Below the pieces are notes generated by a model. It ran no database searches and was not told where the DNA came from. It saw only the letters and a program-made list of their open reading frames with translations. Made by a program: the position numbers and the translations under genes. DNA of 64,000 bases, taken from the sequence record MZ375356.1, one strand, 5' to 3'. Origin of the DNA: Escherichia phage T4. Positions within the stretch are counted from its first letter, which is position 1, and the number at the start of each line of letters is the position of its first letter. Shown in pieces: positions 38,704 to 39,828 of the stretch.

Positions 38704-39252
38704 ACCCAAGAAAACATCTACTGAGCGTTGATACCACTGCAAATCCAAATAGCCATTACGCACATTAAACTGATAGAACATATGACAAGGCGGTAATGCC
38801 ATATATTTAAGTTCAGCTGGATTCCATGCAGAAACAATTTGACGCCTATCATTTGGCAGTTTTTTAATACGATCAATAACTTCTATAATTTGGTCTACAC
38901 CACCAAAATCACGCCACTGTTTTCCATAAATTGGACCAAGTTCACCGCTATGGTATCCTAAATCTTTTGCTTGATTTTCGTAATTTTCATCCCAGACTGT
39001 TTTGCCTTGGATTAACGAATCGTGTTGAATTAATCGTAAATCATTGACATTTGTGCTTCCTGATAAAAACCATATTAGCTCAGCAATGCAAGCTTTCCAG
39101 GCGAGCTTCTTAGTTGTTACCGCAGGAAAACCTTTAGTTAAATCCCAGCGTAATTTAGTACCGAACAGAGCAATTGTTCCTGTGCCTGTACGATCATCGG
39201 TTTCATAACCATTTTCAAAAATGTCTTTAATTAAATCTTGGTATTGTTTCAT
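38704..39252 (-). CDS. td: thymidylate synthase, exon 1
   Basis: 183 codons ending ...SVDVFLG at the 5' splice site; exon1+exon2 = 286 aa. Confidence 0.9.
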
Positions 39253-39828
39253 TTATATACTGATTCCGTAAGGGTTGTTACTTCATCTATTTTATACCAA
39301 TGCGTTTCAACCATTTCACGCTTGCTTATATCATCAAGAAAACTTGCGTCTAATTGAACTGTTGAATTAACACGATGCCTTTTAACGATGCGAGAAACAA
39401 CTACTTCATCTGCATAAGGTAATGCAGCATATAACAGAGCAGGCCCGCCAATTACACTTACTTTAGAATTCTGATCAAGCATAGTTTCGAATGGTGCATT
39501 AGGGCTTGACACTTGAATTTCGCCGCCAGAAATGTAAGTTATATTGCTCCCAAGTAATATAGAAATGTGCTAAATCGCCGTCTTTAGTTACAGGATAATC
39601 ACGCGCAAGGTCACACACCACAATATGGCTACGACCAGGAAGTAATGTAGGCAATGACTGGAACGTTTTAGCACCCATAATCATAATTGTGCCTTCAGTA
39701 CGAGCTTTAAAATTCTGGAGGTCCTTTTTAACTCGTCCCCATGGTAAACCATCACCTAAACCGAATGCTAATTCATTAAAGCCGTCGACCGTTTTAGTTG
39801 GAGAATAAGCGAATACCAATTTAATCAT
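39249..39828 (-). pseudogene. frd: dihydrofolate reductase, frameshifted
   Basis: ORF 39499..39828 reads MIKLVF...[12 protein letters not shown] then wrong frame; next frame gives [21 protein letters not shown]... to the end; span 580 nt = 582-2; joined product would be 193 aa. Confidence 0.85.

Follow-up and report, generated by a model that had tools for sequence, protein, structure and literature searches.

Phage T4 encodes both a dihydrofolate reductase (DHFR; gene frd) and a thymidylate synthase (gene td), and thymidylate synthase oxidises methylene-tetrahydrofolate to dihydrofolate. The dispensability of the T4 DHFR has been known genetically for decades; classical frd-null mutants and deletions of the frd region, dating from the work of Hall in 1967 and later, are reportedly viable on E. 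coli. Biochemical reports of the 1970s placed the enzyme among the components of the T4 virion, an assignment that, to our knowledge, later structures of the T4 baseplate have not borne out. T4 is also the phage in which the concept of slipped-strand (Streisinger-type) frameshifts in short repeats was first worked out.

More recently, T4 has been propagated under Cas9 pressure. Deletions that escape CRISPR in T4 range from 17 bp to 18 kb, are flanked by minihomologies and remove the cut site (Wu et al., mBio 2021, PMC8262927). In CRISPR/Cas9 iterative genome reduction (CiPGr; Yuan et al., Nucleic Acids Res 2022, PMC9825161), T4 was passaged 300-600 times in LB on E. coli MG1655, with host FolA present, in cells that carried SpCas9 and plasmids from a guide library, with homology arms of 50 bp, directed against non-essential genes at up to 8 spacers per gene. 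Structural genes were stated not to be targeted by this library, only 42% of its cassettes were free of errors, and the smallest T4 mutant that emerged from the study was named T4_583L (PMC9825161). The CiPGr genomes were assembled de novo with SOAPdenovo from Illumina reads. The authors noted a small-deletion phenomenon, for which no explanation was given, and suggested that some deletions of 1-2 bases are escape mutations (PMC9825161).

Here we report on a 64,000-nucleotide stretch of a T4 genome (record MZ375356.1; hereafter the window) in which frd is broken. A sequence-only reading of the window had located frd, had ascribed its disruption to the loss of a dinucleotide in a run of TA, and had calculated that two restored bases would give a frame of 193 codons. 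Alignment to T4 frd bore out each of these points, including the exact limits of the gene (Table 1). In a four-way alignment of the window with T4 NC_000866, T4 MT984581 and OL964745.1, AATATATAA of the wild type is AATATAA in the window, with one AT/TA unit gone at alignment columns 285-286. This 2-nt gap, by which TATATAT has become TATAT and 582 nt have become 580, is the sole difference of the window's frd from MT984581, HM137666 and other modern T4 records, and translation of the intact gene (582 nt) gives 193 codons plus a stop. The older reference, NC_000866, also deviates at codon 7 (GC/CG), which is a discrepancy of a known type in that record and no feature of the window. The wild-type Frd protein matches PDB 1JUV (E=1.8e-128), from which it differs only by A7R.

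Table 1 Coordinates of the features at the frd locus of the window.
Feature	Coordinates	Strand	Remarks
frd (T4 dihydrofolate reductase) pseudogene, 580 nt vs 582	39249..39828	-	100% identity to OL964745.1; ATG 39828-39826, native TGA 39251-39249
Truncated frd ORF, 109 aa	39499..39828	-	Residues 1-97 native, then 12 frameshifted residues; TAA 39501-39499
Residual TATAT tract, site of the 2-bp deletion at codon 98	39540..39544	+ strand reading	Wild type TATATAT, MT984581 145402-145408
C-terminal frd remnant, out of frame, native residues 99-193 including VIGGPALL	39249..39539	-	ORF list and Pfam
td exon 1 (thymidylate synthase), intact	38701..39252	-	ATG overlaps native frd stop (ATGA)
Candidate SpCas9 PAM, TGG on sense strand	39526..39528	-	Wild-type 20-nt protospacer CAATATATAACTTACATTTC
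Further candidate sense-strand protospacer at the frd site			TATATAACTTACATTTCTGG, PAM CGG

The consequence for the reading frame is a -2 shift at codon 98. Translation runs correctly to ...HFYITWEQY, loses the frame after Tyr97, adds 12 residues foreign to Frd and ends at codon 110. The N-terminal fragment scores 55 bits against Pfam PF00186 (DHFR_1; profile positions 13-64 of 159, cut-off 25), whereas the C-terminal remnant reaches 17 bits (positions 78-124), below the cut-off. No convincing start signal was seen for this remnant, for which the ORF list gives only a GTG ORF of 87 aa (39249..39512). Downstream of the frameshift lies VIGGPALL (Frd residues 125-132), the nucleotide-binding segment, whose counterpart in an aligned bacterial DHFR is IIGG; it is absent from the truncated product. 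By sequence the locus belongs to the DHFR family, as its N-terminal fragment exceeds the family cut-off and its DNA is T4 frd minus 2 nt, yet there is no continuous 193-codon frame that spans the whole DHFR fold. Judged by its reading frame, the window's frd is thus a pseudogene of this family rather than a functional member, and the allele should be null, since the C-terminal half of the fold, with the VIGG segment, is lost.

A megablast of the frd region against 50,697 phage records yielded 528 matching records. All top matches were Escherichia phage T4, and the features beneath them were frd and then td. A 580-nt frd identical to that of the window was found in only one public phage record, OL964745.1; among the 527 other T4-like records covered at 80% or more, the top matches had the 582-nt frame uninterrupted. 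OL964745.1 (159,752 bp) is described as 'Mutant Escherichia phage T4 clone T4_7t1', with frd already entered as a pair of 'dihydrofolate reductase' CDSs. 'T4583L' locus tags appear in the annotation notes of this record and T4_583L is a product of the CiPGr study (PMC9825161), so that the record can be assigned to the CiPGr project.

Base by base, the window differs from OL964745.1 at about 50 sites and is thus a distinct assembly or clone. Variants were counted relative to MT984581 as the wild type. The window has 52 deletions of 1-3 bp (mostly 2 bp), 13 substitutions and 6 insertions, along with more extensive losses in hoc and in the ndd region; examples of its small-deletion sites are 1658, 22049-22472, 27721-27867, 40326-40944, 55889-55937 and 61979-62052. 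Small deletions common to the window and T4_7t1 number 28, with that of frd among them, and a further 24 are private to the window and 16 to T4_7t1. For stretches with deletions private to the window, the phage collection contained no 100% match. The window therefore shares derived mutations with a deposited CiPGr clone, both in the 28 small deletions and in the loss within hoc. The same series of submissions includes a third clone, T4_3t3 (OL964735.1), in which frd (582 nt) and its neighbours are intact; over the same 63.5 kb it carries a single small deletion and two deletions of about 100 bp, the size of the designed 'cassette-100'. The window is a sibling clone of T4_7t1, that is, a laboratory-evolved, genome-reduced T4 and no natural isolate. 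Since the frd lesion is present in the window and in T4_7t1 and absent from the earlier clone T4_3t3, it is a laboratory product of the '7t' lineage.

Several larger changes accompany the small deletions. The hoc deletion (junction at 4932-4939, about 570 bp lost) is common to the window and T4_7t1, and a deletion in ndd.2-ndd.4 (junction at 60628-60637, about 342 bp lost) is found in the window only. At both junctions the aligned blocks overlap by 8-10 nt, which is consistent with deletion by short-homology joining. Between frd.3 and gene 32, at 40974-41037, lies a perfect 32-bp tandem duplication (CCATAAAGCTTTATGCTTGTAAACCGTTTTGT x2) that is absent from both the wild type and T4_7t1. Between uvsY and gene 25, at 9507-9548, lies an array of 4.2 copies of the 10-bp unit TGTTATTGGA; the wild type has two copies fewer and T4_7t1 one more, as counted from the alignments, and this array is a minisatellite that is expanding in the lineage. 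A complex local rearrangement was found in segE at 6463-6482, with a 9-bp insertion relative to T4_7t1 (in the TGGTGGAAT repeat region) and further changes relative to the wild type, and segE has three 2-bp deletions elsewhere.

How did frd come to lose a TA unit? The wild-type tract comprises 3.5 dinucleotide copies and is among the longest such tracts in the dispensable DNA of the window. The simplest route by which (TA)3.5 could lose one unit would be slipped-strand misalignment during replication. The lineage offers parallels, as 28 of its 66 small deletions amount to the loss of one unit from a short tandem repeat. Dinucleotide tracts of at least 3 units were contracted in 6 of 46 cases in dispensable DNA versus 0 of 30 in essential DNA. 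Against simple slippage stands the overall spectrum of the lineage, with more than 10 small deletions for each substitution and 2-bp losses that far exceed 1-bp losses, including changes of TTT to T. Ordinary replication errors of T4 are not expected to yield a spectrum so dominated by deletions. On balance, we rank neutral or near-neutral retention after slippage first among the explanations and Cas9 escape second. Our overall reading, which we consider probable, is that frd in this laboratory-evolved lineage lost a repeat unit by slippage and became null, and that its loss was tolerated through the intact td and host FolA.

The passage history makes selection by Cas9 the alternative to be weighed most closely. 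The 2-bp deletion could have been selected because it shortened the PAM-distal end of a library protospacer, leaving about 16 matching PAM-proximal nt, too few for efficient cleavage, with the knockout of frd as a by-product. The phage was indeed passaged on Cas9 with guides aimed at non-essential genes, the CiPGr authors themselves considered escape for some deletions of 1-2 bases (PMC9825161), and a candidate protospacer, CAATATATAACTTACATTTC, is available at the site, with the deleted TA unit at positions about 12-18 nt from its sense-strand TGG. The deletion affects only this PAM-distal part, however, and spares the PAM, the cut site and the 10-nt seed. We therefore looked at where the lineage's small deletions fall relative to NGG PAMs, cut sites and 10-nt seeds, and found no enrichment in two tests; the seeds were in fact depleted. 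The fraction of small deletions in a seed or PAM was 0.365, compared with 0.519 under a local null matched for the deleted sequence, and about a third of them lay in no NGG protospacer at all. Published Cas9-escape deletions in T4 are at least 17 bp long and span the cut site (PMC8262927), and three of the lineage's deletions are in-frame and deep in structural genes, which the library was stated not to target. We thus reject Cas9 escape as a general cause of the small deletions, given the lack of enrichment at PAMs, cut sites or seeds, and consider it unlikely, if still the leading alternative, for frd itself.

The spectrum of the lineage calls for explanation in its own right. Private changes amount to 24 deletions and at most 5 substitutions in the window and to 16 deletions and no substitutions in T4_7t1, and the first 46 kb of T4_7t1 hold 35 deletions and 2 substitutions. 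The bases removed by the window's small deletions are 86% A/T, against 64% A/T in the region. No flanking or nuclease-type sequence motif was found around the deletion sites. In T4_7t1, genes 43, 44, 62, 45, 41, 61, uvsX, 46, 47, dda, dexA, 49, 42 and 56 are identical to the wild type; the only changes found in this check of mutator genes were a conservative I159V in gp39, two 2-bp deletions that disrupt dam and a 3-bp deletion in a-gt. Genes 32, 59, rnh, uvsY and 30 are unchanged in the window. On these comparisons we rejected a mutator allele in replication or recombination genes. Errors from chip synthesis, carried in on the 50-bp donor arms, fail to explain the in-frame deletions deep in the untargeted gp29, gp48 and gp34 and confer no selective advantage either, and are possible as a minor contributor. 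T4 under CiPGr conditions may undergo a deletion-specific mutational process, which is explained neither by PAM proximity nor by changes in replication or recombination genes.

One could suppose that the loss of frd is itself connected with this process, in other words that it is no passenger, and was either positively selected or, via thymidylate limitation, contributed to A/T-biased small-deletion mutagenesis. Among the genes checked, frd is the only disrupted enzyme of aerobic-pathway nucleotide synthesis, as the td exons, the nrdB exons, nrdA, cd, 42 and 56 have no inactivating change. The flood of small deletions is present in both frd-minus clones and nearly absent from the frd-plus T4_3t3, and the A/T-richness of the deleted bases and the lack of an altered replication or recombination gene would fit as well. 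However, this correlation comes from essentially two lineages, and the order of events among the 28 shared deletions is not given. The single hit in frd, compared with 3-5 in genes that have long been dead, suggests that frd was inactivated late. Thymineless mutagenesis in T4 produces mainly transitions, and transitions are not raised in the lineage. The phage, moreover, grew in LB with host FolA present. A causal role for the loss of frd in the deletions, or its positive selection, is on this evidence improbable.

Still less probable is an error of sequencing or assembly, with TATATAT and an intact frd of 193 codons in the true genome. Short AT repeats are classic sites of miscalled indels on some platforms, and the window does contain very many small indels. 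Yet the data are Illumina data, the identical lesion is also found in T4_7t1, a separate deposit that differs at about 50 other sites, and the indels, shared and private alike, are distributed consistently with clonal descent, with almost none in T4_3t3 from the same project. The distribution of the indels among genes is also telling. In the window and T4_7t1 pooled, none of 52 frameshifting small indels falls in essential or structural genes (P~2e-12 under uniform placement), a set that covers 25.6 kb or 40% of the region (genes 23, 24, 25-29, 48, 51, 54, 30, 31, 32, 59, 33, 34-38, t, asiA, motA and 52). The only indels in these genes are three in-frame losses of 3 bp. Two of these single-codon losses are in the window, at 14530 in gp29 (baseplate hub/tail-length) and at 47970 in gp34 (proximal long tail fibre), and the third, in gp48, belongs to T4_7t1. 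Indels that respect both reading frame and gene essentiality rule out random read error. The small indels are true mutations that were filtered by selection, and the frd deletion is a true, inherited mutation. We accordingly dropped sequencing error as an explanation, on the shared lesion in T4_7t1 and the avoidance of essential genes. The sequence-only reading had named resequencing that restores TATATA as the result that would overturn it; such a result is unlikely, because the same lesion was assembled separately in T4_7t1.

It is, finally, scarcely credible that full-length DHFR is still made by ribosomal frameshifting or bypassing at the TA run. The translational bypassing of T4 gene 60 provides the only precedent, and the native frame would be regained by a shift of -2 or +1 at UAU-AAC. 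By inspection, however, no slippery heptamer, take-off/landing codon pair or stimulatory element of a programmed frameshift or bypass is visible at CAA-UAU-AAC-UUA; the mutation is a recent laboratory one, absent from T4_3t3 and from other T4 records among the top matches, and neighbouring genes are broken in the same manner.

With the phage DHFR lost, the recycling of dihydrofolate would fall to host FolA. The exons of td carry zero variants relative to the wild type, so that thymidylate synthase should still be made by the phage. The auxiliary status of frd, the intact td and recycling of dihydrofolate by host FolA would together account for tolerance of the loss. The sequence-only reading had likewise proposed reliance on the host enzyme, which plausibly follows from the pathway, from the classical frd-null mutants and from the listing of frd as an auxiliary metabolism gene (PMC2993671). 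As judged from the gene arrangement, a stop some 250 nt ahead of the td start might lower translation of td if the two genes are translationally coupled. As the frd lesion arose alongside many other knockouts, no phenotype can be assigned to frd alone. With regard to the virion role that the earlier reading had raised, the viability of frd deletions weighs against any essential structural part for Frd, and the window clone and T4_7t1, both viable, show that infectious particles can be built without the full-length protein.

Lesions of comparable size are found on both sides of frd and further away. Within the td intron, the ORF of the homing endonuclease I-TevI has small deletions of 3, 3 and 2 bp at 38304-38405, by which it is frameshifted after about 55 native residues, leaving a truncated ORF (38375..38572) and the td exons untouched; the same ORF in T4_7t1 has two more, private 2-bp deletions. 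The gene frd.2 is broken in the viable window clone by two 2-bp deletions and one 3-bp deletion (40326, 40426 and 40536). Among T4 genes of unknown function, frd.2 alone was scored 'Fit' in a CRISPRi-ART screen (PMC11879866), a discrepancy for which polar effects of the knock-down, differences in host or conditions, or compensation are possible explanations. Losses of 2 bp also shift the frame of both rIIB (61979 and 62052) and rIIA (63028-63553); serial passage of T4 in liquid culture commonly yields rapid-lysis (r) mutants. Gene 37 has three substitutions, at 53495, 53536 and 53542, at about codons 937-953 near the C-terminal tip of gp37 (distal long tail fibre), two of which are private to the window. 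These may reflect adaptation of receptor binding during passaging, and a late substitution in the tail-fibre region was also mentioned in the CiPGr study (PMC9825161).

What can be learned from the frd lesion is accordingly limited to the laboratory. Given its origin in the CiPGr experiment and the roughly 50 similar small deletions around it, the lesion tells nothing of natural T4 biology. It is real but ordinary, one of dozens of equivalent knockouts in the window, and the allele is already known from a public, annotated GenBank record of a genome-reduction study. It does show, down to the single base, that T4 grown on E. coli K-12 in rich medium can dispense with a DHFR of its own. It also urges caution, as any 'disrupted gene' in the window is a product of an evolution experiment and not of natural phage evolution. 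Wider interest is confined to the unexplained mutational spectrum of the lineage, which, if understood, could show how passaging on a Cas9 library, or the loss of a gene of nucleotide metabolism, mutagenises T4.

Compared with described systems, the lesion resembles the escape mutants of Wu et al. (PMC8262927) in that it affects a non-essential T4 gene under Cas9 pressure and lies within a possible protospacer, and it differs from them in being only 2 bp long and 12-18 nt from the PAM, in a lineage whose deletions avoid seeds. In the loss of a single repeat unit, from TATATAT to TATAT, it is like a Streisinger-type slippage product, whereas the lineage as a whole departs from the usual spontaneous spectrum, with 2-bp losses more frequent than 1-bp losses even in homopolymers (TTT to T, AAAA to AA). 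As in the classical frd-null mutants, the phage DHFR is lost and viability is kept, but here through a defined -2 frameshift at codon 98 that came out of passaging on a Cas9 library. The closest relative is OL964745.1, which lacks the window's 342-bp ndd.2-ndd.4 deletion, its 32-bp tandem duplication and its 24 private small deletions, and which has in common with it the same 580-nt frd, 28 small deletions and the 570-bp deletion in hoc.
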